Below are positions 1 through 58,212 of a stretch of 64,000 nucleotides of DNA, in pieces. Location: the NCBI GenBank assembly GCA_049585595.1, contig JBAVAG010000118.1, forward strand, positions 1,889-65,888, written 5' to 3'. The translations under genes were made by a program, and so were the position numbers. The number at the start of each line of letters is the position of its first letter. Positions within the stretch are counted from its first letter, which is position 1. The stretch comes from Desulfobaccales bacterium (GTDB lineage Bacteria > Desulfobacterota > Desulfobaccia > Desulfobaccales > 0-14-0-80-60-11). The notes under the pieces are model-generated. The model ran no database searches. It was not told where the DNA came from and was given only the letters and a program-made list of their open reading frames with translations.

Positions 1-894
1 CACCTGCTCCGGGTGAAACCACCTGATCTCCGGGTCGGCCCGGAACCAGGTGAGCTGGCGCTTGGCGTAGCGCCGGGTGTCCACCTTAAGTGCATTGATG
101 GCCTCCTCCCAGGACCGCTCCCCCCTGAGGTATTGGCCCAAGTGCCGGTAGCCCAGGGACTGCAAAGGCTTTAGGTCCGGGGGATACCGCCCCAGCAGCT
201 CCTCCACCTCCTCTAGAAATCCCTGGGCCAGCATGGCCGTGAGGCGCAGGGCGATCCTGGACTGGAGTTCCTCCCGGGGAATTCTCAGGCCCAGCTTCAG
301 GATACGGTAGGGTGAGTCTCGGAAGCGATGGGCCTGGAAAAGTTCCGAGAGGGGCCGGTGGCTGGCCTCCATAACCTCCAGGGCCCGGAGAATCCGATAG
401 CGGTCGTGGGGGTGCAGGCGGGCGGCGGTGATCGGGTCCAGGGCCGCCAGGCGCTGGTGCAGGAGGAGAGGTCCCAGATCGGTAAGCTCCCTCTTGAGGC
501 GCACCCGGATTTCCCCCCGGGGCGAGCCCTCCTCAAAGAGGCCGTAGAGCATGGCCTTGAGATAGAGGCCGCTCCCCCCCACCACCAGGGGCGGTATGCC
601 GCGGGCATAAAGAGAGGCCAGCACGGCCCGGCCCTCCCGGGAGTAGCGGGCCGCGTCATAAGGTTCCGGGGGGCCGGCCACGTCCACGAGGTGGTGGGGC
701 ACGAGGAGGCGTTCCGCGGGGCTGGGCTTGGCGGTGCCGATATCGAGCTCGCGGTAGACCTGGAGGGAGTCGGCGTTGACGATCTCCCCCCCCAGCCTGC
801 GGGCCAATTTTAGGGCGACGGCGGTCTTGCCCACCGCGGTGGGGCCCACCAGCACCGCCACCGGGGATCGGTATTTGCTTGGGGAGGACGCCAT
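1..894 (-). CDS. miaA: tRNA dimethylallyltransferase MiaA; the C-terminus runs off the window start
   Basis: Minus-strand translation from ATG at 894 gives MASSPSKYRSPVAVLVGPTAVGKTAVALKLARRLGGEIVNADSLQVYRELDIGTAKP... It has a P-loop and an IPP-transferase-type body. There is no stop before position 1, so it is absent from the ORF track. Confidence 0.9.
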   Translation of the reverse strand, partial: MASSPSKYRSPVAVLVGPTAVGKTAVALKLARRLGGEIVNADSLQVYRELDIGTAKPSPAERLLVPHHLVDVAGPPEPYDAARYSREGRAVLASLYARGIPPLVVGGSGLYLKAMLYGLFEEGSPRGEIRVRLKRELTDLGPLLLHQRLAALDPITAARLHPHDRYRILRALEVMEASHRPLSELFQAHRFRDSPYRILKLGLRIPREELQSRIALRLTAMLAQGFLEEVEELLGRYPPDLKPLQSLGYRHLGQYLRGERSWEEAINALKVDTRRYAKRQLTWFRADPEIRWFHPEQV

Positions 895-902
895 TCTTAA
901 GG

Positions 903-1091
903 AGTAGCCAGTAGTCAGTAGTCAGTAGTCAGTAAATATTCTCTAAATATAATCTTAAAGCTTATTTCGCCGAAAACCAAAAACCGCCAACCGAGAACCA
1001 ACAGCCAGGGGTTAACCTCTATTTTCATCTCACGCAATGTCGCCAAGACGCCATCCGACTACTGACTACTGATTACTGACCACTGATCACT
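903..1091. repeat. Heptanucleotide-array inverted repeat filling the miaA-mutL spacer
   Basis: Left arm 903-936 is (CAGTAGT)n. Right arm 1057-1091 is (ACTGACT/ACTGATT)n, its complement. A central array 968-1006 reads CGAAAAC CAAAAAC CGCCAAC CGAGAAC CAACAGC. Confidence 0.85.
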
Positions 1092-1092
1092 A

Positions 1093-2856
1093 TTACCTAG
1101 GACGTCGAAAGCTCTGGTGGATGTCGCCGTAGGGGATCAGGCGCCACAGCGGGCGTCCGTGGGGGCAGTGGGAGGATACCGGGATTTCATCTAATTGGGC
1201 CAGCAATGCCTGAACGGCCTCCTCTTGCATAGGGTCCCCAGCCTTGAGGGCCCCCCGGCAGGCCATGAACTGGCAGGCCTGCTCCCGGATCGCCTGGGGC
1301 GAGGCGCCACCCTTCAAGGGGGACAAGGCCTCCACCGCCTCGGCCACCACCGCCTCCAGGTCGGCGTGGCTGAGAAAGGCCGGAGCCGCGGTGATCAAAA
1401 AGCTGGCCCCGCCAAAGTCAGAGAGGTCCAGGCCCGCCTGGGCCAGGACCTCCAGGTGCTCCCGGACCCAATCGGCCTGGGCGGTGGGAACCTCCACCAC
1501 CTTGGGGAAGAGCAGCGCCTGGCGGGTGGCCCCCGGTCCCTTGGCCTTAAAGGATTCATAGAGAACGCGTTCGTGGGCCGCGTGCTGGTCGATGAGGACC
1601 AGGCCCTCCGGGGACTGAGCCAGGATATAGGTGTTCTTTAACTGGCCGATGACCCGGAGGTCCTGGAAGCGCCAGGAGCGGGGGGAGGACGCCGGCGCCG
1701 GTCCGGGCGCCGGCCCCGGCGGCGGGGCCCAGGCGGCCGTCCCTCCCCAGGGGGCCGGGGACGACTCGATGAGTGAAGGCTCAGCCACCCTCGGGAAGTC
1801 GGGCTGCAAGGTCACCCGGTATCCGGGAGCGGCGCCGGAGAGCGGCCCCAGGGCCTGGCGCAGGGCCGCCAGCAGGAGGGCGTAGATTCGGCCCGGATCT
1901 TGAAAGCGCACCTGAGCCTTGGCCGGGTGGACGTTGACGTCCAAATCCGGGGCGGGGAGCGTCAGGTGGAGCACCGCCGCCGGATGGCGCCCCCGGGGCA
2001 GCAGGCCCGCGAACACCTCTTTCAGGACCGCCCCCAGAATGCGGTCCTGCACCACCCGGCGGTTCACCAGGAACACCTGGAAGCGGGAGCTGGCCAGGGA
2101 AAAATCTGGGTCGCTGATGAGCCCGCTGACCTCAAAGGGACCGGTCCCCAGGGACACCGGCAGCATCCGCGCCGCCGCTTCGGCGCCGTAGAGGGCCGCC
2201 ACCCGGGCCGGCAGCTCCTGGGGGCCCGGGGCGGTCAGCAGCACCCGGGTTGGCGTCTTCAGGGTGAAATGGACCTCCGGATACCCCAGGGCCAGCTGGC
2301 GCACCACCTCCACGATATAGGCCTGCTCTCCATCCTTGCTCTTCAGGAATTTGCGCCGGGCCGGGGTATTGAAAAAGAGCTCCGCGACCTCCACCTGGGT
2401 GCCGCCGGCAGCCGCCCAGGGAGAGGATTCTTGCAATTCCCCGGCCAGGGTCGCCAGCCGGAAGCCGGGGGAAGCGCCCGGCGGGCAGGTGACCAGGGTC
2501 AAGCGGCTCACCGCGGCGATGCTGGGCAAGGCCTCGCCCCGGAACCCCAGGGTGGTTATGTTGAGGAGGTCGGACTCATCCCTGAGCTTGCTGGTGGCGT
2601 GGCGCTCCAGGCTCAGGAGGGCCTCCTCCGGGGTCATGCCCCAGCCGTCGTCCACCACCCGCAGGCGCCGGCACCCCCCCTCCTCGATCTCCACCACCAG
2701 GGTCCGGGCCCCGGCGTCCAGGGAGTTTTCCACCAGCTCCTTGACCACCGCGGCGGGGCGGAGGATGACCTCCCCCGCGGCAATCTGGGCCGCCACCTGG
2801 GGCGCCAGCACCCGAATGGCCCGCTCTCTTTTTACCTCTTGCCTTGGCCCAGTCAC
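1093..2856 (-). CDS. mutL: DNA mismatch repair protein MutL
   Basis: IRVLAPQVAAQIAAGEVILRPAAVVKELVENSLDAGA (GHKL ATPase N-terminus) and a C-terminal dimerisation region. The ORF is open to 2997, but the extra N-terminus translates the heptamer repeats (TGNWELVT), so a GTG at 2856 is the more plausible start. The start remains uncertain. Confidence 0.9.
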   Translation of the reverse strand: MTGPRQEVKRERAIRVLAPQVAAQIAAGEVILRPAAVVKELVENSLDAGARTLVVEIEEGGCRRLRVVDDGWGMTPEEALLSLERHATSKLRDESDLLNITTLGFRGEALPSIAAVSRLTLVTCPPGASPGFRLATLAGELQESSPWAAAGGTQVEVAELFFNTPARRKFLKSKDGEQAYIVEVVRQLALGYPEVHFTLKTPTRVLLTAPGPQELPARVAALYGAEAAARMLPVSLGTGPFEVSGLISDPDFSLASSRFQVFLVNRRVVQDRILGAVLKEVFAGLLPRGRHPAAVLHLTLPAPDLDVNVHPAKAQVRFQDPGRIYALLLAALRQALGPLSGAAPGYRVTLQPDFPRVAEPSLIESSPAPWGGTAAWAPPPGPAPGPAPASSPRSWRFQDLRVIGQLKNTYILAQSPEGLVLIDQHAAHERVLYESFKAKGPGATRQALLFPKVVEVPTAQADWVREHLEVLAQAGLDLSDFGGASFLITAAPAFLSHADLEAVVAEAVEALSPLKGGASPQAIREQACQFMACRGALKAGDPMQEEAVQALLAQLDEIPVSSHCPHGRPLWRLIPYGDIHQSFRRPR

Positions 2857-2958
2857 TGGTTTATCATTTCCCCTTGAGGAGGGCTGTGACCCGGTTCTTC
2901 TTGACCCGCCCCGCCGGCCATCAAGACGGCCTTCTTCTGGCCCGCGGGGCCTTTTTAT

Positions 2959-3024
2959 AGTTACCAGTTCCCAGTTGCCAGTTCTCAGTAGGTCCACGGC
3001 GCTGGGAACTGGCTACTGGCGAAG
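2959..3024. repeat. Heptamer-array hairpin
   Basis: TTACCAG TTCCCAG TTGCCAG TTCTCAG (2959-2992) faces CTGGGAA CTGGCTA CTGGCGA (3001-3024) across an 8-nt loop. Confidence 0.8.
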
Positions 3025-3087
3025 AAAGATCTTGGAATCTTTAGATATTTCATGGTGAGCACTTCCCACCATTTTAAATCGAAACTT

Positions 3088-3125
3088 GGAACTGCTCACT
3101 GCTTACTGCTCACTGCTCACTGCTA
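3088..3125. repeat. Tandem heptamer array (CTCACTG/CTTACTG) x4-5 with no adjacent partner arm
   Basis: The sequence reads ggaaCTGCTCACTGCTTACTGCTCACTGCTCACTGCTa. Confidence 0.8.
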
Positions 3126-3160
3126 ATATACCAAAAAATCGCAGCAGAAGGGAGCCTTGC

Positions 3161-3334
3161 ATGGGCCGGGAGCGACCAGCAGACGCCCCCTTGCCGTCCC
3201 GGGAGGAACTGCTCCTGAAGGCGGCCAAGGAGATCGTGGTCAAGTTCATCGAGGTGGGCCGGGTCTCCCCCGCCTCCTTTAGTGACACCTTTAACCTGGT
3301 AATCGACACACTACGCCGATCCCTTAAGGATTAG
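3161..3334 (+). CDS. Small hypothetical protein (57 aa)
   Basis: ATG at 3161 is preceded by GAAGGGAG. Product is MGRERPADAPLPSREELLLKAAKEIVVKFIEVGRVSPASFSDTFNLVIDTLRRSLKD. The longer ORF from 3086 only translates the heptamer array. Confidence 0.5.
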   Translation: MGRERPADAPLPSREELLLKAAKEIVVKFIEVGRVSPASFSDTFNLVIDTLRRSLKD

Positions 3335-3335
3335 G

Positions 3336-3443
3336 ACAGTTTTCTGTTCACTGTTAACTCTTTTCTGTGAAAGCCCGAGGCCAGCCCCAATGGACCTTGG
3401 TTGAGACAGAAAACGGAAAACAGGAAACCGAAAACAGGAAACT
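3336..3443. repeat. Heptamer-array inverted repeat between the small ORF and rph
   Basis: Left arm 3336-3368 is TTTTCTG TTCACTG TTAACTC TTTTCTG. Right arm 3406-3443 is CAGAAAA CGGAAAA CAGGAAA CCGAAAA CAGGAAA. Confidence 0.8.
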
Positions 3444-3448
3444 AAGAG

Positions 3449-4189
3449 ATGATGCGCCGCAGCGGCGGGCGGGCTCGGGACCGGCTCCGGCCGGTGAGCC
3501 TCACCCCGGGCTACCTCGATTTTGCCGAAGGCTCCTGCCTGATAACCTGGGGCCGCACCCGGGTGGTGTGCGCCGCCACGGTGGTGGAGACGGTGCCGGC
3601 CTTTCGTCAATCCCGCGGCGGCGGCTGGGTTACCGCCGAATACGCCATGCTGCCCCGGGCGTCCCACAGCCGCCAGGAGCGGGAGTCCCGCCTGGGCCGG
3701 ATGGGGGGCCGGACCCAGGAGATCAGCCGCCTCATCGGGCGTTCGCTCAGGGCCGCGGTGGACCTGCAGGCCCTGGGAGCCCGCACCGTCATCCTGGACT
3801 GCGACGTCCTGCAGGCCGACGGCGGCACCCGCACCGCCAGCATCACCGGGGCCTACGTGGCCCTGGCCCTGGCCCTGGAAGGGTTGCGGCGCCAGGGCCT
3901 GCTGGCGGCCCTGCCCCTTTCCCAGCAGGTAGCCGCGGTGAGCGCCGGCGCCTACTGGGGTCAACTGCTGCTGGACCTGGACTATGAAGAGGATTCCCAG
4001 GCCGCGGTGGACGCCAACTTTGTGGGCACCGGCCAGAGCGAGCTCATCGAGGTGCAGGTCAGCGGCGAGGAGGGGCCCTTCCCGGTAGACCAGCTCCCGC
4101 AACTGCTGGCCCTGGCCCAGGAGGGTCTTAAGGAGCTTTTCCATCTCCAGGAGGAGGCCCTGCGCCCATGGATGCCCCTGTCCTGGTGA
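3449..4189 (+). CDS. rph: Ribonuclease PH
   Basis: LRPVSLTPGYLDFAEGSCLITWGRTRVVCAATV...GGGWVTAEYAMLPRAS...DCDVLQADGGTRTASITGAYVAL is a canonical RNase PH sequence. Confidence 0.95.
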   Translation: MMRRSGGRARDRLRPVSLTPGYLDFAEGSCLITWGRTRVVCAATVVETVPAFRQSRGGGWVTAEYAMLPRASHSRQERESRLGRMGGRTQEISRLIGRSLRAAVDLQALGARTVILDCDVLQADGGTRTASITGAYVALALALEGLRRQGLLAALPLSQQVAAVSAGAYWGQLLLDLDYEEDSQAAVDANFVGTGQSELIEVQVSGEEGPFPVDQLPQLLALAQEGLKELFHLQEEALRPWMPLSW

Positions 4190-4830
4190 TGGCCACGCGC
4201 TCGGTCGGCAAGATCCGGGAGCTGCGGCAAATCCTGGCAGACCTGGAGCTCTCCCTCTTGGGGTTGGACGATTTTCCGGGACTGCCGGAGATCACCGAAG
4301 AGGGATCGACCTTTGGGGCGAACGCCGAGACCAAGGCCCGGGAAGTGGTCCGGCTCACGGGGCTTCCGGCCCTGGCGGACGACTCCGGTTTGGAGGTGGC
4401 GGCACTCAAGGGCCGCCCCGGAGTCCATTCGGCCCGCTACGCCCAGGACCTTACCTTCCCGGCGGCCCCTGGCGACGCCAACAACTGGGGCAAACTCCTC
4501 AAGGAGATGCGGGAGATTCCCTGGGAGCAGCGCCAGGCCCGGTTCGTCTGCGAAATGGCCCTGGCCCTGCCGGACGGCCGCCTCTTCCGGGCCCGGGGGG
4601 AGTGCCCCGGCCGCATCTCGCTTAAGCCCCTGGGGACCCAGGGGTTCGGCTACGACCCGGTCTTCTGGGTGGAGGAGTACGGGGCCACCATGGCCCAACT
4701 GGGGTTGCTAGTGAAAAACCGCATCAGCCACCGGGCCCGGGCCCTCACCGCCATGCGGCGGATTTTGGCCGGGCTCAGGGAGGACTTGGCCCGATTCAGT
4801 AAAAGTCGGGACGTGGCGCAGCCTGGTTAG
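4189..4830 (+). CDS. rdgB: dITP/XTP pyrophosphatase (RdgB/HAM1 family)
   Basis: MATRSVGKIRELRQIL...ADDSGLEVAALKGRPGVHSARY...GFGYDPVF...SHRARAL. ATG at 4189 overlaps the rph TGA (TGATG); an alternative in-frame ATG lies at 4168. The stop TAG at 4828-4830 lies inside tRNA-Pro. Confidence 0.9.
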   Translation: MATRSVGKIRELRQILADLELSLLGLDDFPGLPEITEEGSTFGANAETKAREVVRLTGLPALADDSGLEVAALKGRPGVHSARYAQDLTFPAAPGDANNWGKLLKEMREIPWEQRQARFVCEMALALPDGRLFRARGECPGRISLKPLGTQGFGYDPVFWVEEYGATMAQLGLLVKNRISHRARALTAMRRILAGLREDLARFSKSRDVAQPG

Positions 4831-4884
4831 CGCGCCTGCTTTGGGAGCAGGAAGCCCCCGGTTCGAATCCGGGCGTCCCGACCA
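4807..4884 (+). tRNA. tRNA-Pro (anticodon TGG)
   Basis: CGGGACGTGGCGCAGCCTGGTTAGCGCGCCTGCTTTGGGAGCAGGAAGCCCCCGGTTCGAATCCGGGCGTCCCGACCA folds as a cloverleaf. The anticodon loop is TTTGGGA and CCA is encoded. Confidence 0.93.
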
Positions 4885-5308
4885 TTTTTAGAAGACACCC
4901 GCGGCCGCTCCTGCCGCCTCATTTCCCGGTAATCCCCCTATCAGTGACCGCTTCCGGGAAATTAACCAAATATTAATCAAACTAAAATTCAATTTTTACG
5001 AACTCAGGGTAACCTGCGGACATTCCCTTTCACCTGCTGAAACGGCTGGGCTGATGAAGACCCCTTATCCCGGGGGGCGCCTGATTTGCCCAGCCGTTGT
5101 TTCTGGTGGCAACAGGGACTGGCCAAAATCGGCCACCTGCGGAAAAGACGCAGTTCCAGGTGGCCTGCTACAATAGTCGCGGCCCCGGGTGGTAGTCCTT
5201 AAAATTTGCGCCTGGCTTCAATGCCCAGGCCGGAAGGGCTTGGTCTACCCCGTTTATACCGCACATCTGGCAAACCTTGGAGGTTCTTGCCGAGGAAGGT
5301 CAAAATCG

Positions 5309-5494
5309 ATGAATACCCCTAGAGATCAGTCAAAAAGGCAGGCTGTGGAGAATATCACCAATGAATTGCACAAGCTCTATCTGGCAGTGGTGGGCAAAGA
5401 GCCTGATCCGGAAGTGGTGCGGGCCGAAGCGGAATACTTTGTGGCGAAGTATGGGCCGGATGCCGACCTGAAAGAAATGTTTGGGTCAGTTTAG
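5309..5494 (+). CDS. Small hypothetical protein (61 aa)
   Basis: ATG at 5309 follows GAGGAAGG. Product is MNTPRDQSKRQAVENITNELHKLYLAVVGKEPDPEVVRAEAEYFVAKYGPDADLKEMFGSV. I recognise no family. Confidence 0.3.
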   Translation: MNTPRDQSKRQAVENITNELHKLYLAVVGKEPDPEVVRAEAEYFVAKYGPDADLKEMFGSV

Positions 5495-5627
5495 GCATCG
5501 CTTATAAAGTCATTCAATGATGGATTGCCATCAAGGTGAAGAAGAGGGCCTTGATGCAGCCAGGCTCAGCTATTCAAGAACCGGCGGCTAACGAAGCAAA
5601 TGCCAACCTGAGAGGGCCTCTGGTGCC

Positions 5628-5792
5628 ATGATCAGGTCCGAAACCAATTGTCCGCGTTGCGGGCAGGGGTCTCCAGCCCGTTTGCGGTGCAAGTTATGGA
5701 TGCGCCTGCTTCCGGCCAGCAGGTATTATAAATGCGGCTGGTGCGCGCTGAAATTTCTGGCCGCCGGCCTATGGACCTGGCGCTTTCCCTAG
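5628..5792 (+). CDS. Possible zinc-ribbon mini-protein (54 aa)
   Basis: Hand translation gives MIRSETNCPRCGQGSPARLRCKLWMRLLPASRYYKCGWCALKFLAAGLWTWRFP, with two CxxC pairs. It is below the ORF-track length cutoff. Confidence 0.3.
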   Translation: MIRSETNCPRCGQGSPARLRCKLWMRLLPASRYYKCGWCALKFLAAGLWTWRFP

Positions 5793-6385
5793 CAATATTT
5801 TGAAAATTCTTGCTCGAAGATGAGCCGCCTAAGCTTCAGTAAAGAAAAGCCAACAAATATGGCCGCCGGCCGACCTGGGAGGCGGCCAATTTTATGAGAG
5901 GGCTGGTTTCTGGCCAGTCCCTGAATAGCAATTTCTCGATTGCGGGGTACCGGAGAATCGGGGACCCGGGTGACCGGACGGCCAGGGCCGCTCCCTGCGG
6001 TAGTCTGATACTGCGCTCGCTGAGGACCTGATTAAGCCTCAGGTCGATAACCGGGATGAATTACCCAAGGTCAGCGCGGCAGGTAGGGGTGGAGAATTCC
6101 TTGGAGAGAAAAGAGGTAGTGGCCATGCTTATGGAAAGCCCCTTCTACTTCGATCTGCGGCCCCGGGAGCGGCTTTTGCTGGTGCGCCAATACCAACTTC
6201 GATTTTCCCGAAAAGTCAGGGCAGGCAATCCGGACCCTACGCTCCATGTGGCCTCGGAACGGAGGCAGGATGAGATGAGGTTCTGCCAACTACCTTCTGT
6301 CAGTTTGAAGACCATAAAAAAAAATGAGAATCCGGCCTGAGGCTGAAGTGCCGCGGCCATCATCCCATCCGGGGGGCAATCCTAG

Positions 6386-11122: not shown

Positions 11123-11473
11123 TTAAACTGAATTCGCTTGAGCCGCATCCGGCAGGCCGCCCAGAATCACCTCACGGACAATTTCTGCCGCTTCCTTGCG
11201 CGAGGCCTCCAGGCAGTCTTGCCCTTGGGGAGTAAGCTCATAATATTTGCGAGCCCGCCCCTTGAAGACCCTGATGTGGCAGCGCATGAGGTTGGCCTTT
11301 TCCATGCTATGGAGCATAGGGTACAGGCTGCCCGGGCTGATGGCGTAACCCAGGCTGTGGAAATACTTACTCAGCCGGCCGCCGTAAACCGGCCCCAGAC
11401 TCGCCTGGTGCAGGACAATGAGTTTCACCATACCCTGCCAGAAGGCCTGGGAGATTTGTCTTTGAAAATTCAT
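11123..11473 (-). CDS. PadR-family transcriptional regulator
   Basis: LIVLHQASLGPVYGGRLSKYFHSLGYAISPGSLYPMLHSMEKANLM...KYYELTPQG is a winged-helix PadR signature. Confidence 0.85.
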   Translation of the reverse strand: MNFQRQISQAFWQGMVKLIVLHQASLGPVYGGRLSKYFHSLGYAISPGSLYPMLHSMEKANLMRCHIRVFKGRARKYYELTPQGQDCLEASRKEAAEIVREVILGGLPDAAQANSV

Positions 11474-11590
11474 ATATCGAATATTGATATATACCTGTTA
11501 GAAAATCATTAAGGTCTCATTGATTTTTGGTTAAAGAATCACTAAAGTTAGTTTTTCAAATTGTGCCTTTGCAAAGGAGGTAGGTGTGCC

Positions 11591-11896
11591 ATGGCTGTTA
11601 TGGATAATGGTCTGAAGGGCGCAGTTCCCAGTATTCTGGTGGTGTTGGGGGTGGCCCTGGCGGCCCCCATCGTTCTTCCCGCCGTGGCGGCGGTGTCCCG
11701 CCCGCTGGCCAAGACCCTGATCAGAGGCTATCTGACCTTGTCGGATATGGCCAAGGAGTTCGCGGCCGAGGCCGGGGAGCAGATCAGCGACCTGATGGCC
11801 GAGGTCCAGTCCGAACGCGCGGCAACCGCCACCGCCGAGGCGGCAGCCGCCACAGTGGAAGCGGTGGCCAAAACCAAAGTTAAACCAGGCAGTTGA
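11591..11896 (+). CDS. Small membrane protein, DUF5132-like (N-terminal TM helix plus Ala/Glu-rich helix)
   Basis: ATG at 11591 follows AAGGAGG. Product is MAVMDNGLKGAVPSILVVLGVALAAPIVLPAVAAVSRPLAKTLIRGYLTLSDMAKEFAAEAGEQISDLMAEV... The family name is from memory and needs HMM confirmation. Confidence 0.6.
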   Translation: MAVMDNGLKGAVPSILVVLGVALAAPIVLPAVAAVSRPLAKTLIRGYLTLSDMAKEFAAEAGEQISDLMAEVQSERAATATAEAAAATVEAVAKTKVKPGS

Positions 11897-11913
11897 CCAT
11901 TCCGGGAGAGAGA

Positions 11914-12486
11914 ATGGAACTCGAGGGCTTCAAAGTCGTCCATGCCCTGCCGGGGCGGGTGCGTCTCCAGGTCGCCAAGTTTAAGGGAAACCCGGCCCTG
12001 GCCCGCCAGGCTCAGGGAAAGCTCGCCAAGGTGCCGGGCATCACGCAGGTCGAGGCTAAACCAGGAACCGGGAGCCTGTTGATCCACTACGACCAGGACA
12101 AATTACTCTCCACGGCCTCCCTGGAAATCCTATCTGGGACCTTGGGGGAAATCTTTCCCGAAATCGAAGTCCTCACCCTGGCCACCGGGTTAGCCTCTCT
12201 GGCGGAGAATCCCGGCGCCGGGACCGGCTCGCCGGTGGCCGCCAGCCTGACCGGTTCCCTTAAGGCCGCCAATACCCGGCTGGCCAAACTTACCGGGGGG
12301 CTGGACCTGAAGCTCCTGCTGCCGCTCACCCTGATCTTCTTCGGCTTACGCAGGCTTTGGGCCGCCGACAAGGTCGCTTCCCCTTCCTGGTTCGACTATC
12401 TCTGGTTTGGCTTTGCCAGCTTTGTCATGCTGAACCGCGGCCTGGTGGAAGGCGGTACTGAGACCACAGCGGCAAAGAAAGACTGA
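11914..12486 (+). CDS. Cysteine-less HMA-like (HMA_2-type) domain protein with a C-terminal hydrophobic region
   Basis: MELEGFKVVHALPGRVRLQVAKFKGNPALARQAQGKLAKVPGITQVEAKPGTGSLLIHYDQ..., then LDLKLLLPLTLIFFGL and WFDYLWFGFASFVMLN hydrophobic segments. Confidence 0.65.
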   Translation: MELEGFKVVHALPGRVRLQVAKFKGNPALARQAQGKLAKVPGITQVEAKPGTGSLLIHYDQDKLLSTASLEILSGTLGEIFPEIEVLTLATGLASLAENPGAGTGSPVAASLTGSLKAANTRLAKLTGGLDLKLLLPLTLIFFGLRRLWAADKVASPSWFDYLWFGFASFVMLNRGLVEGGTETTAAKKD

Positions 12487-15328: not shown

Positions 15329-15994
15329 ATGTCCCCCCAGGAAACTAAAGAGAGCAAGAGTATCGGCAAGATGCTGGGCGAAGCCGGCACCACCGTGAAA
15401 GACGGCCTGGTCGACAGCCTCAAGGGGCTGAACGAGATTGAAGCCCAAATCGTCACTCTGGCGAGAAACACCGTAACCGACGTCCTGAAGGGCACCGGCA
15501 GCGTGGCCAACGAGACCATCAATGTCAGCAAGGACGTCTTTAAAGGGGCGTTGAAGGCCAGCGAAGAGATGGGCTCCAGCCTGGTGGTGACCACCAAGGA
15601 TGTGGCCAAGGGCATTCTCCTGGGCCTTACCGATGTGGGCGGAGATGTGGGAAAGTCCGCCGCCCAACTGGCCAAAGGCGCGGTCAAAGGGGCCGGGGAA
15701 GTCGGCGGCGACGTGGCCCAGGTGGCCAAAAGCGCCGTAACCGGAGTCATTGAGGCCACTTCCGAGATCGGCGGCAATGTGGGCGAAGCCGCCAAGGCGG
15801 CGGCGGGTGGCGCCATTGAAGCCGCCGGCAGCCTGGGTCAGTCGGCGGTCAAGGCCGTCAGCGACATCCTGGTGGGTGCGGTCTCCGGCCTCAAGGACGT
15901 GGCTTGCGCCGCCTGGCCGAAATCGAAGGCCGGGTCGCCACCGGACTCCAAGCCGGAGGCCGTTGCCCATCCGGAAAAGAAGACGAAGGGGTAA
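15329..15994 (+). CDS. Repeat protein: about 8 tandem 22-residue Gly/Ala/Val/Lys-rich units and a Lys/Pro-rich tail
   Basis: ATG at 15329 follows GGAGG. Units include KSAAQLAKGAVKGAGEVGGDVA, QVAKSAVTGVIEATSEIGGNVG and EAAKAAAGGAIEAAGSLGQSAV. Confidence 0.65.
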   Translation: MSPQETKESKSIGKMLGEAGTTVKDGLVDSLKGLNEIEAQIVTLARNTVTDVLKGTGSVANETINVSKDVFKGALKASEEMGSSLVVTTKDVAKGILLGLTDVGGDVGKSAAQLAKGAVKGAGEVGGDVAQVAKSAVTGVIEATSEIGGNVGEAAKAAAGGAIEAAGSLGQSAVKAVSDILVGAVSGLKDVACAAWPKSKAGSPPDSKPEAVAHPEKKTKG

Positions 15995-21703: not shown

Positions 21704-22325
21704 CCTTGAGAGACTTTACCCGGGATTTCGGCCATTTCAGACGCAGCCATTTCCCCCGGATAAGGACGTAACCCAAAAGCAGGGCGGCGATTAGCCCGGT
21801 GGCCCAGCGGCAGTGGACGCCGATCCTTTCCACTAAGAGGCTCGCCTCCCGACCCAGGAAATACCCCAACAAAATATAGGACAGGGACCAGGCCAGGACC
21901 CCCAAATAAGCAAACCGGGTAAAGCCTGCTACCGGGAACCTGGTAATCCCGGCGGCGATGGCGACCCAGTGCCTTACTCCAGGGAGAAAGTATCCCGGGC
22001 ATAATCTCCAGCCGCCGCCACGCTGGAGCCACTCCTGCAAATTCTTAAACTTGTCAGGCCTGAGGCGGAAGAAGGCCCCGGACTCCCCGATTAACCTGGC
22101 GCCTGCCGCTCTTCCCACCCAATAATCCAAAGTTACGCCCAGGACGGCGCCCGAGACGACCACGGCCATGGCAGGGAGGAGCCGCAAATCCCCCCGAAGC
22201 GCCAGATAGCCGGTGAGGGTTAATAATAATTCATCAGGGATGGGAAGGCCGAAGGCCCCGGGCAGCAGTAAGAGAAATATTGCCGGATAGCCATAATTGG
22301 TGACGTAATAAGTTACTAATTCCAT
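21693..22325 (-). CDS. DedA-family membrane protein
   Basis: YGYPAIFLLLLPGAFGLPIPDELLLTLTGYLA... plus multiple TM segments. Confidence 0.75.
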   Translation of the reverse strand: MELVTYYVTNYGYPAIFLLLLPGAFGLPIPDELLLTLTGYLALRGDLRLLPAMAVVVSGAVLGVTLDYWVGRAAGARLIGESGAFFRLRPDKFKNLQEWLQRGGGWRLCPGYFLPGVRHWVAIAAGITRFPVAGFTRFAYLGVLAWSLSYILLGYFLGREASLLVERIGVHCRWATGLIAALLLGYVLIRGKWLRLKWPKSRVKSLKVIP

Positions 22326-22630
22326 AATTAATCAAAAAAGCTTAAGGCCGGTTTTGGTTGTGTGGAGGTTTAATGGCGTTTACGCTCCCATTAACCATTC
22401 AACGTCATCATCGTGGCGCTAACCAGGCTCGGCTTTAAATAAAATTGTTAAATGATAACCAAGTTTTGTTAGGTTATTTTTAATAATTGGTTATTTTTAG
22501 GTTTGGAGAAATAAGGCTGGACCGAAGACAGTTCGACATCTGAGTCGAAATTTGCGAAAATCTCGCCAGGTATTTTTGCCAGTTTGATTTCAAATTTGAG
22601 AGTTTGCCTTGAGCATTAATTCATTGGTGG

Positions 22631-22657
22631 ACCCGGGGATTTCATCCCGGGTTTTTT
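22631..22657 (+). terminator. Orphan rho-independent terminator
   Basis: ACCCGGG-gatttcat-CCCGGGT followed by TTTTTT. No plus-strand CDS lies upstream. Confidence 0.5.
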
Positions 22658-22800
22658 CCATTTTAAGAGATTTCCATATTCGAATCATATGCAACGATCT
22701 CACGAGCGCGGATAGTGGCAAGATAGTCGTTATTCTTGAATACCGATTCTAACAGCAGAGTTTTTGCCATTAGCGGGTTTTGCCGGGGGACCCTTTAGGC

Positions 22801-22840
22801 GGAAACTGAAAAACCGAAAAACTGAAAACTGATAACTGCC
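22801..22840. repeat. Tandem heptamer array (GAAAACT-type), single arm
   Basis: GGAAACT GAAAAAC CGAAAAA CTGAAAA CTGATAA CTG, immediately 3' of the L,D-transpeptidase stop. Confidence 0.7.
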
Positions 22841-22841
22841 T

Positions 22842-23303
22842 TTAATCCTGCGTTCTCCAGCCCATGATAACCACCAGGGTTCTGCCTGGCTCCGTCCAAT
22901 CATATAACCACTTGATGTAGGGCTGCTGTACGTGTACGCAGCCATGGGTGGCTAATCCTCTTTTCTTCTGCGGCGGCGGTACTACTCCTTCGTGAATCGC
23001 TTTTCTCTCTTGATAATTGAAAAATATGGAGTAGGGCATGGGGGTCTGGTAATGCCGCGAATAATAGTCTTCCTCTTTCACTCGCACCAGATAAATGCCC
23101 GGTTCGGTGGTAGTTTCATCGTCGCCAGTTATCACCGGAAACTCCAGAACCTTTTTCCCCCTTTCATAAGCTGTGCCCACTTGCTTGAGTTGATTAATCC
23201 AAATCACTTTTTCATACTCCTGGAAGATGTCTGCCGCGAGAGTTGGAGATACAAGAAGATTAGTTAATAATGCTAATGAAAATAACAAAATATATTTTTT
23301 CAT
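22842..23303 (-). CDS. L,D-transpeptidase (YkuD domain) with a signal peptide
   Basis: MKKYILLFSLALLTNLLVSPTLA is the signal. The catalytic region is IHEGVVPP...ATHGCVHV. The ORF is open to 23318. Confidence 0.8.
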   Translation of the reverse strand: MKKYILLFSLALLTNLLVSPTLAADIFQEYEKVIWINQLKQVGTAYERGKKVLEFPVITGDDETTTEPGIYLVRVKEEDYYSRHYQTPMPYSIFFNYQERKAIHEGVVPPPQKKRGLATHGCVHVQQPYIKWLYDWTEPGRTLVVIMGWRTQD

Positions 23304-23867
23304 CCGGTCTGTTCCCATTGATTAAGAGCTTATAAGATACAGTTTAATTATCGTAATCATCTTCCAAAACGATTTCAAGACCGGGAGTCGCTTGGAAGTA
23401 CCCTGACCCTTGACCTCGGTTCATACACAGAATTTTCAATTGAGATTGACTTCTTGGATGGCATAAAAAATATTCGACCTCCCGACCGGAAAGGTCTAGT
23501 CAATTCTTCGAAACAAAACTCTGGCAAAGGATTGAAAGCAAATCTATATACTCCTGGTCGCGCGCTCGAGCTGGGTGGGTTATAGGTGGGCCGGGAACAA
23601 GAACTTGACAAAATTAAAAAGATGCTTTCGGTCAGACTCAACAAAATATCGGGAATTTAGTGGGACGGATTTATTGATTTTTCTATAAAAGTTCGTGGGG
23701 GCAAGTGTCCTCGCAGGGGCGTAGCCTTTCTTGATAATCCCACTTACTTGAGACATCGTCCAAAACAAAACGACAGAGGCCAAGATTTTTCTTGACAAAC
23801 AGGCTGGAAGTTCTTACTGCTTTATCCAAATAAGCAACACTCATTTTACATAAGGGGGGATATCTCA

Positions 23868-24089
23868 ATGAATAAAAAAATTATTTTCCTGATGTGCCTG
23901 CTCATGGCAATGATGTGGACTGCGGGTTGTTCATGTCCGGGAGTGCGGCCCGTGGCTGCGGCGCCTCCCGTGGTGGAACCCGCCCCCACGCCGCCTGCTC
24001 CGCAGCCAGAGGTTGTCAAACCCGCGCCAGTGGAGGAACCCGGCTCGAAGAAGCTGAAGCCACGCGTCATCAAGGATACGAATGACTAA
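23868..24089 (+). CDS. Small Pro-rich lipoprotein
   Basis: MNKKIIFLMCLLMAMMWTAGCS (lipobox TAGC), followed by a PVAAAPPVVEPAPTPPAPQPEVVKPAPVEEP stretch. Confidence 0.6.
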   Translation: MNKKIIFLMCLLMAMMWTAGCSCPGVRPVAAAPPVVEPAPTPPAPQPEVVKPAPVEEPGSKKLKPRVIKDTND

Positions 24090-44083: not shown

Positions 44084-44118
44084 CACAGGCTGGAAGCCTG
44101 TGCCACTTTCGCCCCTAC
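44084..44118. repeat. REP-like element (minus orientation: GTAGGGGCGAAAGTGGCACAGGCTTCCAGCCTGTG)
   Basis: It shares GTAGGGGCG...AGTGGCACAGGC with the copy at 51428-51460. It contains the CACAGGCT/AGCCTGTG hairpin. Confidence 0.7.
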
Positions 44119-48143: not shown

Positions 48144-48476
48144 CTTCTTCTCCTAAGAAAGCAGTGAGCAGGGAGCAGTGGCCAGTGATCAGTAATCAGT
48201 AATCAGTAATCAGTAAAAAGGGTTTTTCTGTAGCCGCAGCCTTTAGGCTGCGCCAAAAGCTTCTGGGCAGAGGCGTCTACACCAACTGGTTCTGCAATTC
48301 CCCACGAAACCTATTAATTCGCAATGGCAATTTAGACCGGGGTGTGCCTCATGACCCCAATAAGGCGCGTAAGACGCGCCCTACGTAACTGTTCACTACT
48401 CACTGCTTACTGCTCCCTGCTCAATGACCACTGATTACTGATTACTGATTACTCCTCCCTGATCACTCCTCCCCAC
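48144..48476. repeat. Heptamer-array element filling the glcD-glcF spacer
   Basis: The left arm is 48161-48216 (CAGTGAG/CAGGGAG, then CAGTAAT x3). The right arm is 48388-48476 (CTCACTG/CTGCTCC, then ACTGATT x3). The 170-nt core has two GC hairpins. Confidence 0.85.
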
Positions 48477-49859
48477 TCACTCCCCGATGCTCTGCCCGGG
48501 GTTCAAGATATTCTTCGGGTCCAGGGCCGCCTTGATGCTCTTGGAATAGCGGATGGTGCCGGGGCCCACTTCCTTTTCCAGGAAGCGGGCCTTGGCCTTG
48601 CCGATGCCGTGCTCCCCGGAGAGGGTGCCACCCAGGGCCAGGGCAACGTCGAAGATGGCCTCTACTGCGGCCTCCACCCGGCGCCATTCCTCCTGGTTGC
48701 GGCGGTCCGTGAGGATGGTGGGGTGGAGGTTGCCGTCCCCGGCGTGGCCGAAGGTGCCGATGGGCAGCTCAAATTTCCGGCCGATCTCTTCCAGTGCCCG
48801 GATCATGGCGGGGATCTGGCTGCGGGGGACGGTGGCGTCCTCCAGGACCACGGTGGGTTTCAGTTTGGCCAGGGCCGAAAGTGCCGCCCGGCGGGCGGCC
48901 CAGACCCGGTCCCGCTCCGCCGCGTCCTGGGCGGTGTGCACCTGGGTTGCCCCGAGCTTCCGGCAGAGGGCCTCCACCTGCTCGGCCTCCTCCGCCACCA
49001 CTGCGGGGTGGCCGTCCACCTCGATCAAGAGCAGGGCGGCGGCGTCCACCGGCAGCCCCACGTGGCTGTAATCCTCCACGGTGCGGATGGTGAAGTTATC
49101 CAGAAATTCCAGGGTGGCCGGCACGATGCGGTTACTGATGATGGCCGCCACCGTCTCCGAAGCCTGGTCCACCTGGTCGAAAGTCGCCAGCATAGCCCGC
49201 CGGTCCTGGGGCAGGGGAATCAGTTTCAGGATGATCTCGGCGATCACCCCCAGGGTGCCCTCGGAACCCACCAGGAGGCCGGTGAGGTTGTAGCCGGTGA
49301 CGCACTTCACCGTGCGGGAGCCGGTCTTGACGAGGTCGCCCGCGGCCGCGAAAAACTCCAGGCCCATGACGTAGTCCAGGGTGACCCCATACTTCAGGCC
49401 CCGCAGCCCCCCGGCGTTTTCCGCGACGTTGCCCCCCAGGGTGGAGACCGCCATGGAGCCCGGGTCCGGCGGATAGAAGAGGCCCTTGGCCTCCACCGCC
49501 GCGGCCAGCCTGGCGGTGACCACCCCCGGCTGCACCACCGCGTACTGGTCTGCTTCGTTGATCTCCAGGATCTGGTTGAGGGCGTTGGTCAGGACCACCA
49601 CCCCCCCGGCGTGGGGGATGGTGCCGCCGCTGAGGTTGGTGCCGGCCCCCCGCACCGTCAGGGGCAGACCGTGGTCGTTGCAGAGGCGCACCACCCGGCC
49701 CAGGGCCTCGCAGGAGCGGGGCCGCACCACCAGGGCGGGGAGCACCGGCTCCAGGACCGCGGCGTCATAGGCATAGGTGAGCCGGTCGGCTTCGCTCACC
49801 ATGACCTGCTCCCGGCCCACGATCTGTTGCAATTCTTGAATCAGGCCTTGGCTAATCAT
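48477..49859 (-). CDS. glcD: FAD-linked oxidase (GlcD / D-lactate dehydrogenase-like)
   Basis: PALVVRPRSCEALGRVVRLCNDHGLPLTVRGAGTNLSGG is the FAD-binding PCMH domain; GEHGIGKAK lies near the C-terminus. ATG at 49859 follows GGAGGAGA. Confidence 0.85.
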   Translation of the reverse strand: MISQGLIQELQQIVGREQVMVSEADRLTYAYDAAVLEPVLPALVVRPRSCEALGRVVRLCNDHGLPLTVRGAGTNLSGGTIPHAGGVVVLTNALNQILEINEADQYAVVQPGVVTARLAAAVEAKGLFYPPDPGSMAVSTLGGNVAENAGGLRGLKYGVTLDYVMGLEFFAAAGDLVKTGSRTVKCVTGYNLTGLLVGSEGTLGVIAEIILKLIPLPQDRRAMLATFDQVDQASETVAAIISNRIVPATLEFLDNFTIRTVEDYSHVGLPVDAAALLLIEVDGHPAVVAEEAEQVEALCRKLGATQVHTAQDAAERDRVWAARRAALSALAKLKPTVVLEDATVPRSQIPAMIRALEEIGRKFELPIGTFGHAGDGNLHPTILTDRRNQEEWRRVEAAVEAIFDVALALGGTLSGEHGIGKAKARFLEKEVGPGTIRYSKSIKAALDPKNILNPGQSIGE

Positions 49860-51346: not shown

Positions 51347-51373
51347 TCTAAAATCATAATTCATAATCATAAT
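51347..51373. repeat. Short tandem heptamer array (TCATAAT) x3
   Basis: aaaATCATAATTCATAATCATAATgcg. Confidence 0.6.
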
Positions 51374-51379
51374 GCGTAA

Positions 51380-51545
51380 CCCCAAAAAAGGGGAATTATA
51401 TACTTGACTCCCGATTCCATCACGGCCGTAGGGGCGGCGTTTCAGTGGCACAGGCCTCTGGCAATCGTGGGTTTGCCCTGGGCGGGGAAACCCTGCCCCT
51501 ACAAAGGATAATTGAGGGATTCAAATATATAATTCCCCAAAAAAG
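51380..51545. mobile_element. MITE-like nested palindrome: 13-bp perfect terminal inverted repeats around a REP-like core
   Basis: GGGGAATTATATA (51390-51402) pairs with TATATAATTCCCC (51526-51538). CCCCAAAAAAG occurs at both ends. The core is GTAGGGGCGG...CTGCCCCTAC (51428-51501). Confidence 0.5.
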
Positions 51546-57158: not shown

Positions 57159-57204
57159 GTAGGGGCGGGGTGTCCGCGCCCGGGCGGCGAGACGCCGCCC
57201 CTAC
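57159..57204. repeat. REP-like palindrome GTAGGGGCGG...CCGCCCCTAC with extended outer arms
   Basis: The outer arms are TCTCCCCTCGCC and CGGCGCGGGGAGA. It lies 60 nt after the lctP stop. Confidence 0.75.
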
Positions 57205-58009: not shown

Positions 58010-58010
58010 C

Positions 58011-58103
58011 AATAAAGGCAAAAGGCAAAAGTAAAAAGGTAAAATTAAAAAAATCAGGGTTTTGCCCTTTTACTTTTGCCTTTTTACTTTTTCATTTTGC
58101 CTT
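58011..58103. repeat. Heptamer-array hairpin (AAGGCAA / AAGTAAA units)
   Basis: Left arm 58011-58053 and right arm 58057-58103 are complementary around a 3-nt loop. It lies between the isochorismatase stop and tRNA-Arg. Confidence 0.8.
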
Positions 58104-58135
58104 GGGGGGGTCTCATCGCCCCCAGCCATCTCACT

Positions 58136-58212
58136 GCGCCTGTAGCTCAGTTGGACAGAGCAACGGACTTCTAATCCGTGGGTCGCAGGTTCGAATCCTG
58201 CCAGGCGCGCCA
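58136..58212 (+). tRNA. tRNA-Arg (anticodon TCT)
   Basis: GCGCCTGTAGCTCAGTTGGACAGAGCAACGGACTTCTAATCCGTGGGTCGCAGGTTCGAATCCTGCCAGGCGCGCCA. The anticodon loop is CTTCTAA. Confidence 0.92.

Follow-up and report, generated by a model that had tools for sequence, protein, structure and literature searches.

Tandem heptanucleotide arrays between genes of a Desulfobaccales bacterium: inverted pairs with fixed polarity and co-varying arms

Catalogues of heptanucleotide repeats go back 35 years and cover cyanobacteria, Xanthomonas, Beggiatoaceae and Geobacter; here we describe such repeats in a 64 000-nucleotide stretch of DNA (hereafter the window) from an uncultured Desulfobaccales bacterium of the phylum Thermodesulfobacteriota, a relative of sulfate reducers (assembly GCA_049585595.1, contig JBAVAG010000118.1, positions 1,889 to 65,888 of the forward strand). 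Accounts of the cyanobacterial STRR (short tandemly repeated repetitive) sequences generally present direct arrays that serve for fingerprinting, rather than inverted pairs that co-evolve; STRR1 (CCCCAGT) and STRR3 (CAACAGT) reportedly have a CAGT core. Among bacterial long simple sequence repeats, with units of 5-11 nt, heptamers are the most over-represented and are mainly intergenic (Mrazek 2007, as summarised in PMC4679880 and PMC4692102). In Xanthomonas campestris and X. axonopodis, GGGAATC arrays make up 70-75 convergent pairs that could fold into stem-loops; array length varies between the species and the single or paired type is kept (Rehm et al. 2015, PMC4692102). In Geobacter metallireducens, a former deltaproteobacterium, hepta- and octanucleotide arrays are mostly opposite-strand pairs at variable distance, with insertion sequence elements at fixed distances, and class 3 comprises eight opposite-strand pairs of arrays with five MTYCTGA units each, including a pair within an operon, between proB and proA (Aklujkar et al. 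2009, PMC2700814). The TAACTGA repeats of marine Beggiatoaceae, some Cyanobacteria and Bacteroidetes are intergenic, lie in forward orientation a few nucleotides upstream of start codons and contain stop codons; 169 direct sets and one indirect (inverted) set of one exact unit were found, no RNA secondary structure was predicted, and post-transcriptional control was proposed (MacGregor 2015, PMC4679880). Inverted heptamer pairs are therefore on record for Xanthomonas (PMC4692102) and G. metallireducens (PMC2700814), although a first reading of the window made from its letters alone (the original prediction), which named STRR repeats of heterocystous cyanobacteria, had known of no such pairs in a genome with this kind of gene content.

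The original prediction had proposed tandem heptanucleotide arrays in intergenic spacers at multiple loci, and Tandem Repeats Finder (TRF) called period 7 at every strong locus that it listed (Table 1), with 3.4-12 copies and additional solutions of periods 14 and 21. An autocorrelation scan placed eight strong period-7 arrays in the intergenic 8.6 kb (13% of the window) and none in the ~55 kb of coding DNA, in agreement with the supposed intergenic enrichment; each of the other periods from 4 to 12 gave at most one array. In 200 Markov shuffles of the intergenic DNA the mean was 0.015 period-7 arrays per shuffle. Arrays occupy only ~6 of the 41 window spacers of at least 40 nt. The window density of ~0.125 arrays/kb compares with 0.023 in a diverse background and ~0.007 in non-relatives, so that this lineage has ~5 times and ~18 times the density of these two, respectively. 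Eleven further contigs, drawn from nine samples or assemblies besides this one and 99.76-100% identical to the window, had zero indels within the arrays, and an assembly artefact is ruled out because assemblies of the same species from other samples reproduced the arrays in this way. The feature is real and statistically secure. Over 15 kb the window and genome L081 differed by four single-nucleotide polymorphisms, two of which fell in one arm, marking the arrays as hypermutable and as substitution hot spots. Two short-read contigs ended within heptad arrays, as repeats would lead one to expect (L087 starts at window position 3095 and L085 at 48185); arrays thus break assemblies and will be under-represented or truncated in metagenome-assembled genomes.

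Three of the listed loci were less clear. The TCATAAT repeat at 51347-51373 was marginal, with a period-7 score below threshold, and is probably not part of the array system. The array within the mutL-miaA loop was weak and consisted of GGUUNNN repeated four to five times in the sense strand (CNNNAAC on the + strand) in a predicted inner hairpin. The arm following the stop codon of the 57-aa open reading frame (ORF) upstream of rph was degenerate; what made it recognisable was chiefly its complementarity, along with the clearer orthologous arrays of genomes L097 and L098.

We then analysed the pairing of the arrays. A reverse-complement 14-mer partner (12-14 of 14 bases, no more than 600 bp away) was present for seven of the ten arrays, whereas reverse-only and complement-only control partners reached at most 11 of 14; the complementary arms noted in the original prediction are real. 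Partner arrays formed imperfect stems of 18-60 bp; five heptamer arm pairs were found in the window and more in genomes L001, L002 and L003. Predicted RNA folds of the spacers lay well below those of dinucleotide shuffles (z of -4.6, -7.2, -3.5, -6.4 and -4.3). Rfam scans returned only tRNAs at gathering score, and the regions 850-3500 and 48100-48520 gave no credible match at E<=1, so that no known RNA family was identified. Promoter and terminator consensus scans of the window spacers gave nothing decisive.

The units were less free than originally supposed. The claim had been that the period and the pairing are conserved and the sequence is not; however, most units share a CAGT/ACTG core, a second family has the unit AAAAGGN, and both families recur in relatives. 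The CAGTNNN family (with its complement) includes CAGTAGT, CAGTAAT, CAGTGGT and CAGTGAT at the mutL-miaA junction (locus 1), CAGTGAG, CAGGGAG, CAGTGAT and CAGTAAT at the glcD-CCG junction (locus 6), CAGTTNC at 2959, CAGTGAG at 3091 (ACTGCTC on the + strand), CAGTTAT and CAGTTTT at 22803, and a degenerate C[AT]GTTNN at 3336, whose first copy is CAGTTTT. ACTGCTC/CAGTGAG recurs at two loci only, and AAAAGGN is represented in the window by the hairpin at 58011-58103. A CAGT core universal to bacterial heptamers was rejected, since it was present in five of 31 arrays from the diverse background.

The orientation of the arrays relative to the genes was fixed, CAGT-type arrays following stop codons and ACTG-type arrays preceding the next gene. 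At the same-strand junctions of 16 related loci, CAGT-in-sense arrays lay -1 to 23 nt from the stop codon, intact ACTG-in-sense arrays lay 8-43 nt before the next ORF start, and none of the arrays was in coding DNA. The rule had no exception other than one row with an erroneous crude gene call, and solitary arrays conformed to it as well. This confirmed that the arrays abut stop and start codons, as predicted, and the gene map places most of them between genes of the same strand. Even the 'divergent' spacer upstream of mutL follows the scheme, as its AGTTNNN array begins right after a terminator-like hairpin. The further suggestion that arrays fill whole spacers was true at 3335-3448 and 58010-58135 only and failed at the other loci. 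As a separate point, CAGTRRN units contain a stop codon, and the 7-nt period places stops in all three frames within three units; at the end of mutL (1084-1095, - strand sense UAA UAG UGA), the UAA is followed by in-frame UAG and UGA from the first heptad.

The analysis covered ~190 kb from relatives besides the 64 kb of the window; gene calls were crude outside the regions looked up, and the related genomes are non-independent samples. Arrays were found at the same gene junctions in ~15 related genomes and were kept there from 97% to ~64% protein identity despite fast sequence turnover. Copy number showed no indels at 99.8-100% identity, whereas copies and units differed at 99.5% (L092 versus L093) and at 79-95% nucleotide identity. 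As the original prediction had envisaged, orthologous spacers of related genomes varied in copy number and showed arm changes that compensate each other, and the arms of one locus stayed complementary at several junctions while their units changed. Thus junction positions persist, sequences turn over, the arms change together and the arrays are dispensable.

The best-sampled junction lies between the glcD-like FAD oxidase gene and the CCG/Fer4 gene. In genomes 79-95% identical to the window in nucleotide sequence, (GCAGTRA)n always followed the glcD stop codon and (TYACTGC)n always preceded the Shine-Dalgarno (SD) sequence of CCG. In the window, the UGA stop of the oxidase gene lies within the first unit, GGAGUGA, of the stop-proximal arm, and the opposite arm ends 5-6 nt ahead of the SD sequence AGGAG. 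The units differed among genomes (CAGTGAG, CAGTAAT, TCAGCTT and CAGTTAG), and the arms were complementary within each genome. Genomes L092 and L093 were 99.5% identical over 18.8 kb of flanks, yet their loops shared nothing and their arms differed compensatorily (GTAA/TTAC versus GTGA/TCAC). Similarly, a window-specific expansion of three to four CAGTAAT units was matched by four ATTACTG units in the opposite arm. Among the 720 permutations of the arms of six genomes, the cognate pairing had the best double-centred duplex energy, a signal to which the expansion shared by the two window arms contributed.

The loop of this junction was highly plastic (Table 1), and the inserts of L092 and L094 both lie in operon orientation. 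The loop sequences of the window had no second copy within the window. The L094 insert is a 1055-aa Type IIG restriction-modification (RM) gene exactly between the arms (2243-5410; PADLOC REase_MTase_IIG, E 1.5e-270), and that of L092 is an AT-rich, promoterless, orphan 232-aa ORF (11430-12128) without a Pfam or PADLOC match. In the window, positions 48239-48280 (-) partially duplicate the first ~19 codons of CCG/Fer4 (compare 48081-48143; GGAATTG.AGA.CCAGTTGGTG), and L094 carries at 5440-5870 three tandem copies of a block made of hairpin, ACTG array, SD sequence and first 19 CCG codons, pointing to repeated local tandem duplication. The GlcD-like ORF of L095 (6860-8275) runs on into the (GCAGTGA)n array and was therefore called at 471 aa and not 460, so that here an array changes the C-terminus of a protein.

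At the mutL-miaA junction the window has a CAGTNNN pair around a 120-nt loop. In the mRNA sense, the stop-proximal arm reads CAGUGAU CAGUGGU CAGUAAU CAGUAGU CAGUAGU and begins ~1 nt past the mutL stop codon, and the start-proximal arm, (ACUGACU)x3-ACUGGCU, ends 8 nt upstream of the miaA start codon. In L097, L100 and L001 the mutL stop codon at this junction is followed by a tight (AAAAGGG)n/(CCCTTTT)n hairpin, of which L098 has a degenerate version. In a scan of GTDB, the best match to MutL was 64% identical.

Further turnover was seen on the other side of mutL. The tight hairpin at 2959..3024 directly follows a conserved terminator-like hairpin (2939-2956); it has an orthologue in L099, and AGTTNNN arrays occupy the equivalent position in L098, L100 and L004. 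The arms upstream of the 57-aa ORF read CCAGTTN/NAACTGG in the window and L099, GAGTTTC/GAAACTC in L098 and AGTTTYR/AAAACTN in L100. A conserved TAATAT box, together with the 57-aa ORF's leader, comes just downstream of the solitary array at 3088..3125, which has orthologues in L097 and L099. Between the 57-aa ORF and rph, (CTGTTTT)n/(AAAACAG)n arms were found in the window, L097 and L098 and another structure in L100; in the window the second arm stops 5 nt short of the rph start. A metagenome scan with RNase PH for orthologous spacers gave at least four close relatives, two of them usable (L103 and L104).

How the arrays arise and what they do can be approached from these observations. We tentatively favour the reading that heptad arrays born by slippage are kept as intercistronic RNA stems whose loops accumulate insertions. 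The arrays are hypervariable heptanucleotide microsatellites of the STRR or long-simple-sequence-repeat kind, which would arise and turn over by slipped-strand mispairing. A (CAGTNNN)n or (AAAAGGN)n array begins at or close to the upstream stop codon or terminator (at most a few bases away), and the mirror-image (NNNACTG)n or (NCCTTTT)n ends a few bases before the downstream ribosome-binding site or promoter. In a read-through polycistronic transcript, the arms would then pair into a long imperfect stem that ties the tail of one cistron to the head of its successor and leaves whatever intervenes as a loop. Tight versions, especially AAAAGGN/CCTTTTN with a U-rich 3' arm, may serve as terminator- or stabiliser-like hairpins, and split versions as intercistronic stems coupling downstream translation to upstream termination. 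Such coupling could work in that the foot of the stem, beside the SD sequence, would be melted by a ribosome that has reached the stop codon; alternatively, split versions could be processing sites for a double-strand RNase. The loop may be a hot spot for insertion and duplication because the stem would tolerate any loop content. The gene-relative polarity, together with an excess of G.U pairs in the sense over the antisense duplex (40 versus 27 overall and 20 versus 4 at glcD-CCG) and the more frequent stability of the former, favours a constraint tied to transcription or translation, the duplex signal being weak and drawn from non-independent samples.

Several observations weigh against RNA stems. 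The comparison of sense and antisense duplexes, as a test of selection at the RNA level, gave a weak overall signal, the sense duplex being more stable in 10 of 16 junction/genome combinations. The arrays are dispensable, since L099 has a 3-nt spacer between the 57-aa ORF and rph and L003 a 3-nt spacer between mutL and miaA; the latter junction is also devoid of heptads in L099. Boxes resembling -10 elements occur within or beside some loops (GATATAAT-like boxes before miaA and TAATAT after the 3091-3124 array), so the two arms may not always share one RNA and one array may be promoter DNA. The SD sequences lie outside the predicted stems. Finally, history alone could account for the position beside stop and start codons, if a tight ancestral hairpin filled a short spacer and the loop insertions came later.

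A neutral or selfish origin at the DNA level is nearly as likely as RNA stems, in our judgement. Heptamers would slip wherever selection permits, which is in intergenic DNA; hairpins or cruciforms arising during replication, and then intramolecular template switching (quasipalindrome correction), would copy changes from one arm to the other. Complementarity would thus be kept with no function behind it, and the loop would be fragile DNA. In a diverse sample of 80 unrelated genomes (1.36 Mb), period 7 was the commonest non-triplet array period, with 31 arrays, of which 13 had an inverted partner against 4-6 in controls, suggesting a general mutational process. The dispensability of the arrays in some relatives, the hypermutable arms, the duplicated ends of adjacent genes and the slight asymmetry between sense and antisense all fit this explanation. 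It accounts less well for the fixed polarity, which extends to solitary arrays lacking a partner to copy, for the excess density in the lineage, for the retention of arrays at the same junctions down to ~64% protein identity, and for the G.U excess at glcD-CCG. Heptad arrays also occur near mutL or rph in unrelated phyla, several of them as inverted pairs, so the phenomenon is widespread (Table 1).

It is unlikely that the arrays are paired DNA-binding sites, on which oligomers of a nucleoid-associated or global regulator would assemble and loop the DNA between promoter-flanking arrays. A precedent exists in the paired sites of G. metallireducens, for which this hypothesis was put forward (PMC2700814), and the conserved CAGT core suggests sequence-specific recognition. 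The array at 3091-3124 lies just upstream of a TAATAT box, -10-like boxes lie in the mutL-miaA loop, and three heptads make 21 bp, or two helical turns, TRF also giving solutions of periods 14 and 21. However, the variable positions and even the core change (TCAGCTT, GAGTTTC, AAAAGGG), a poor fit to one specificity; protein binding would not call for idiosyncratic unit variants to recur in mirrored order from one arm to the other; many arrays follow stop codons far from promoter-like sites; and the analysis yielded no candidate protein.

We consider it slightly more doubtful still that the arrays act as a single-stranded RNA platform for S1, a cold-shock-domain or CsrA-like protein or the ribosome, a role put forward for the TAACTGA repeats ahead of start codons in Beggiatoaceae, with ACUG functional and CAGU an antagonist or incidental. 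At locus 5 the units CAGTTAT and CAGTTTT match the TAACTGA reverse complement, in full or with one mismatch, and miaA lacks an obvious SD sequence behind its array, yet most arrays are paired and predicted to be double-stranded, half of them follow stop codons instead of preceding starts, the AAAAGGN family makes tight hairpins and the unit sequence varies. Of similarly low probability is a lineage-wide device in which a factor recognising CAGT heptads or the stem would keep an evolvable RNA or DNA clamp at operon junctions, providing safe docking sites at which foreign DNA could enter and be swapped with the operon left intact; if so, this would be an integrase-independent cassette hot spot (for the Type IIG RM gene, orphan ORFs and repetitive extragenic palindromic (REP) elements) with arms co-evolving so that expression of the flanking genes is maintained.

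The least probable account, in which non-autonomous mobile elements (of the MITE type, miniature transposable elements with inverted repeats; compare Nezha) have the arm pairs as their terminal inverted repeats, or the pairs are cassette-capturing recombination sites, would explain why the arms flank such variable inserts as the 232-aa ORF and the Type IIG RM gene and why L092 and L093 differ wholly in their loops, but it is opposed by arms that remain beside the stop codon and SD sequence both at the near-empty L096 junction (54 bp) and after the L092/L093 loop swap, by loops unique in the window and arms that differ between loci, by the lack of linked target-site duplications or a transposase or integrase, no search having been aimed at RAYT-type or other transposase genes, and by recognisable mobile elements in the loops that are separate GTAGGG palindromes with inverted repeats of their own. 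A MITE family is ruled out by the single-copy loops in the window and the persistence of arms when the loop is near-empty, and a search of the L092 cassette for integron attC-like core sites (RYYYAAC/GTTRRRY) gave one match, at chance level.

Table 1. Heptad arrays, their arms and neighbouring genes in the window and in other genomes
Feature	Genome	Position	Strand	TRF period-7 call	Details
miaA	window	start at 894 (start codon 892-894)	-		
Start-proximal arm, mutL-miaA	window	903..936	-	903-934	TRF, inverted repeat, fold
Weak loop-internal period-7 array	window	968..1006	-	970-999 (weak)	TRF score 32, 73% matches
Stop-proximal arm, mutL-miaA	window	1057..1091	-	1057-1091	TRF, inverted repeat, fold, gene calls
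Inverted arms	window	903-930 / 1057-1084			28 nt, 89% complementary
mutL	window	1093-2856 (stop codon 1093-1095)	-		
Tight hairpin, (CAGTTNC)x4 versus GGGAACTGGCTACTGG	window	2959..3024	+	2959-2989	TRF, inverted repeat, fold z -4.3
Inverted arms	window	2971-2988 / 3002-3019			18 nt, 89% complementary
Solitary array, (ACTGCTC/ACTGCTT)x5	window	3088..3125	+	3091-3124	TRF score 61
57-aa ORF	window	3161-3334	+		
Degenerate stop-proximal arm, CAGTTTT CTGTTCA CTGTTAA CTCTTTT CTGT	window	3336..3368	+		Inverted repeat, fold z -3.5
Start-proximal arm, ACAGAAA ACGGAAA ACAGGAA ACCGAAA ACAGGAA	window	3406..3443	+	3406-3442	TRF, inverted repeat, fold
Inverted arms	window	3339-3368 / 3406-3435			30 nt, 77% complementary
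rph (RNase PH)	window	3449-4189	+		
rdgB-like gene	window		+		
Solitary array	window	22801..22840	-	22803-22838	Sense CAGUUAU CAGUUUU CAGUUUUU CGGUUUUU CAGUUUC
YkuD L,D-transpeptidase gene	window	22842-23318	-		
CCG/Fer4 gene	window	46812-48143	-		
Start-proximal arm, glcD-CCG, (UUACUGA)x4 ... CUGCUCCCUGCUCACUGC	window	48156..48222	-	48160-48216	TRF; 51 nt at 84%; fold z -7.2
Loop between arms	window	48223..48384	-		REP-like GTAGGGCGCG...CGCGCC hairpin, partial CCG 5'-end duplicate, conserved GC hairpin
Stop-proximal arm, glcD-like-CCG/Fer4	window	48385..48483	-	48388-48483	~13 heptads; TRF, inverted repeat, fold
Inverted arms	window	48164-48214 / 48430-48480			51 nt, 84% complementary
GlcD-like FAD oxidase gene	window	48477-49859	-		
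larA	window		-		
GntR-type regulator gene	window		-		
Marginal TCATAAT repeat	window	51347..51373	.		~2.9 copies (two 7-nt, one 6-nt); TRF period 6 with indel
Isochorismatase gene	window	57371-58009	+		
Tight hairpin, (AAAGGCA/AAAAGTA)n versus (TTTTGCC/TTTTTAC)n	window	58011..58103	+	58014-58051, 58060-58098	TRF; 36 nt at 89%; z -6.4
Inverted arms	window	58015-58050 / 58068-58103			36 nt, 89% complementary
tRNA-Arg	window	58136-58212	+		
glcD-CCG spacer	window				333 bp
glcD-CCG spacer	L096				54-bp minimal hairpin CAGTTAG.../...CTAACTG
glcD-CCG spacer	L095				355 bp, REP-like element with GTAGGGTGGGCACTGCCCACC inverted ends
glcD-CCG spacer	L093				494 bp
glcD-CCG spacer	L092				804 bp, orphan 232-aa ORF
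glcD-CCG spacer	L094				3.2-kb Type IIG RM gene and three tandem [hairpin + ACTG array + SD + CCG 5' end] copies
glcD-CCG spacer	L184				Arms (TCAGCTT)2 / (GCTGAAA)2
Heptad arrays	L045 (Nitrospiria)	5721-5754 / 5838-5874			
Heptad arrays	L058 (Anaerolineae)	5961-5984 / 6034-6061			
Heptad array	L013 (Geobacter)	11858-11949			
Heptad array, (CATCCAG)x39	L048 (Olavius symbiont Delta 1)	15411-15684			
Heptad array, (CTGGCTA)x5	L148	4732-4765			

The hairpin at 58011..58103 lies right after the stop codon of the isochorismatase gene (58009) and ahead of the tRNA-Arg gene (58136); its stem has a predicted energy of -50 kcal/mol and a U-rich 3' arm, and the terminator consensus scan flagged only an inner hairpin at 58056-58068. 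The solitary array at 22801..22840 begins 3 nt past the stop codon of the YkuD gene. The surrounding region (~22000-24000) has a G+C content of 45.7%, against ~60% elsewhere; besides the YkuD gene and small ORFs without Pfam matches it has an AT-rich spacer of 516 bp, and the region may have been acquired.

A segment of ~115 nt within 2838-2956 (+), near the start of mutL, was near-invariant in five genomes whose flanking proteins are just 82-94% identical. It has a sigma-70-like promoter match (TTGCCT-17-TATCAT, 2839-2867) and ends with an intrinsic-terminator-like hairpin, GGCCCGCGGGGCC, followed by T5 (2939-2956). From these features, the segment is a candidate small RNA or a candidate mutL leader or regulatory element overlapping the mutL start; it had no Rfam match. 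A small protein encoded in 2871-2960 (a 24-codon ORF with a strong SD sequence) was rejected, as a 1-nt indel in L100 and near-100% nucleotide conservation point to a non-coding element.

Palindromes tagged with GTAGGG and resembling REP elements (GTAGGGGCGGC...GGCACAGGC, GTAGGGTGGGCACTGCCCACC) were found in many spacers, often as inverted doublets like REPINs (doublets of REP sequences) or MITEs. In the window they occur at 22917, 34018, 44093-44118 (-), 48359-48384 (-), 51428, 51477-51502 (-), 57159 and 57179-57204 (-), and in relatives at L093 11556-11735, L095 8278-8457 and in spacers of L097, L098, L099 and L104; several are inserted within or beside heptad arrays. In the 514-bp spacer between the GntR-type regulator gene and larA, a 23-nt inverted repeat of 91% complementarity (51390-51412 / 51516-51538, GGGGAATTATATACTTGACTCCC) surrounds a pair of REP-like palindromes and could be another composite element or a regulatory structure. 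The heptad arrays themselves did not match REP or REPIN sequences, as the GTAG-tagged GC-rich palindrome is absent from them and the GTAGGG palindromes nearby are separate. [quoted passage not shown]

This lineage offers an unusually informative natural series, as the same junctions can be traced from 100% to ~64% protein identity. Along the series the unit, the copy number and the loop content change, and the complementarity of the arms and their polarity persist. It thereby becomes testable whether the arrays act as RNA stems, whether selection or template switching maintains complementarity, and whether the loops are privileged sites of insertion. Stems that matter would give operons a general means of tolerating insertions; should the stems be unimportant, the arrays would be a clear example of the concerted evolution of inverted microsatellites.

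Compared with the described systems, these repeats are a variant of an already known class of bacterial repeats. HIP1 is a palindrome abundant in many cyanobacteria. A cyanobacterial origin of the window was ruled out, as HIP1 (GCGATCGC) occurs 0 times in it and the closest proteins are named Desulfobaccales or Thermodesulfobacteriota; the window has ~60% G+C, and its gene content includes lactate utilisation (Lar/Lut/GlcD). The label 'STRR-like' given in the original prediction is apt, since the arrays, like cyanobacterial STRR sequences, are tandem heptanucleotide units in intergenic DNA, although the host here is a member of the Desulfobaccales and not a (heterocystous) cyanobacterium. They are also long simple sequence repeats in the sense of Mrazek (2007), with head-to-tail units within 5-11 nt beyond chance and an unstable copy number. 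A literature search for heptamer repeats in Desulfobaccales or Syntrophobacter found no report. The anatomy resembles that of long-range stems in polycistronic RNA, such as those flanking rRNA that are cut by RNase III and those coupling cistrons, in which complementary segments surround a variable insert; those stems are not made of tandem heptads, and the likeness is one of anatomy alone.

The TAACTGA system shares the ACTG/CAGT core and the forward placement ahead of start codons, where the intact ACTG-in-sense arrays described here lie 8-43 nt before the next ORF start. Unlike that system, the present arrays lack the exact unit and have only the one-mismatch variants AAACTGA, TTACTGA and GATAACTGC; they are predominantly paired, and stop codons precede half of them. 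With G. metallireducens class 3 they share paired heptamer arrays on opposite strands, and MTYCTGA contains CTGA/TCAG. However, that class is multicopy with one consensus found by BLAST and was interpreted, without tests, as DNA sites of the IHF/HU type (PMC2700814), whereas the units here vary by locus and the comparative evidence points to pairing between arms. The Xanthomonas GGGAATC type is similar in having two opposite-strand arrays of one heptamer per intergenic region. It differs in using one G-rich unit genome-wide, studied as a G-quadruplex former, and the work on it contains no report of arm co-variation, stop/start polarity or loop insertion hot spots (PMC4692102). In the Desulfobaccales genome there are several variants with CAGT or AAAAGG cores, and CAGTNNN/ACTGNNN units lack GGG tracts, although the glcD arm is partly G-rich. 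To our knowledge, what is new in the present arrays is the presence of several unit variants with a shared core in one genome, the rule of stop-proximal and start-proximal polarity, the direct evidence of arm co-variation between close genomes, and the loop as a hot spot of insertion and duplication.

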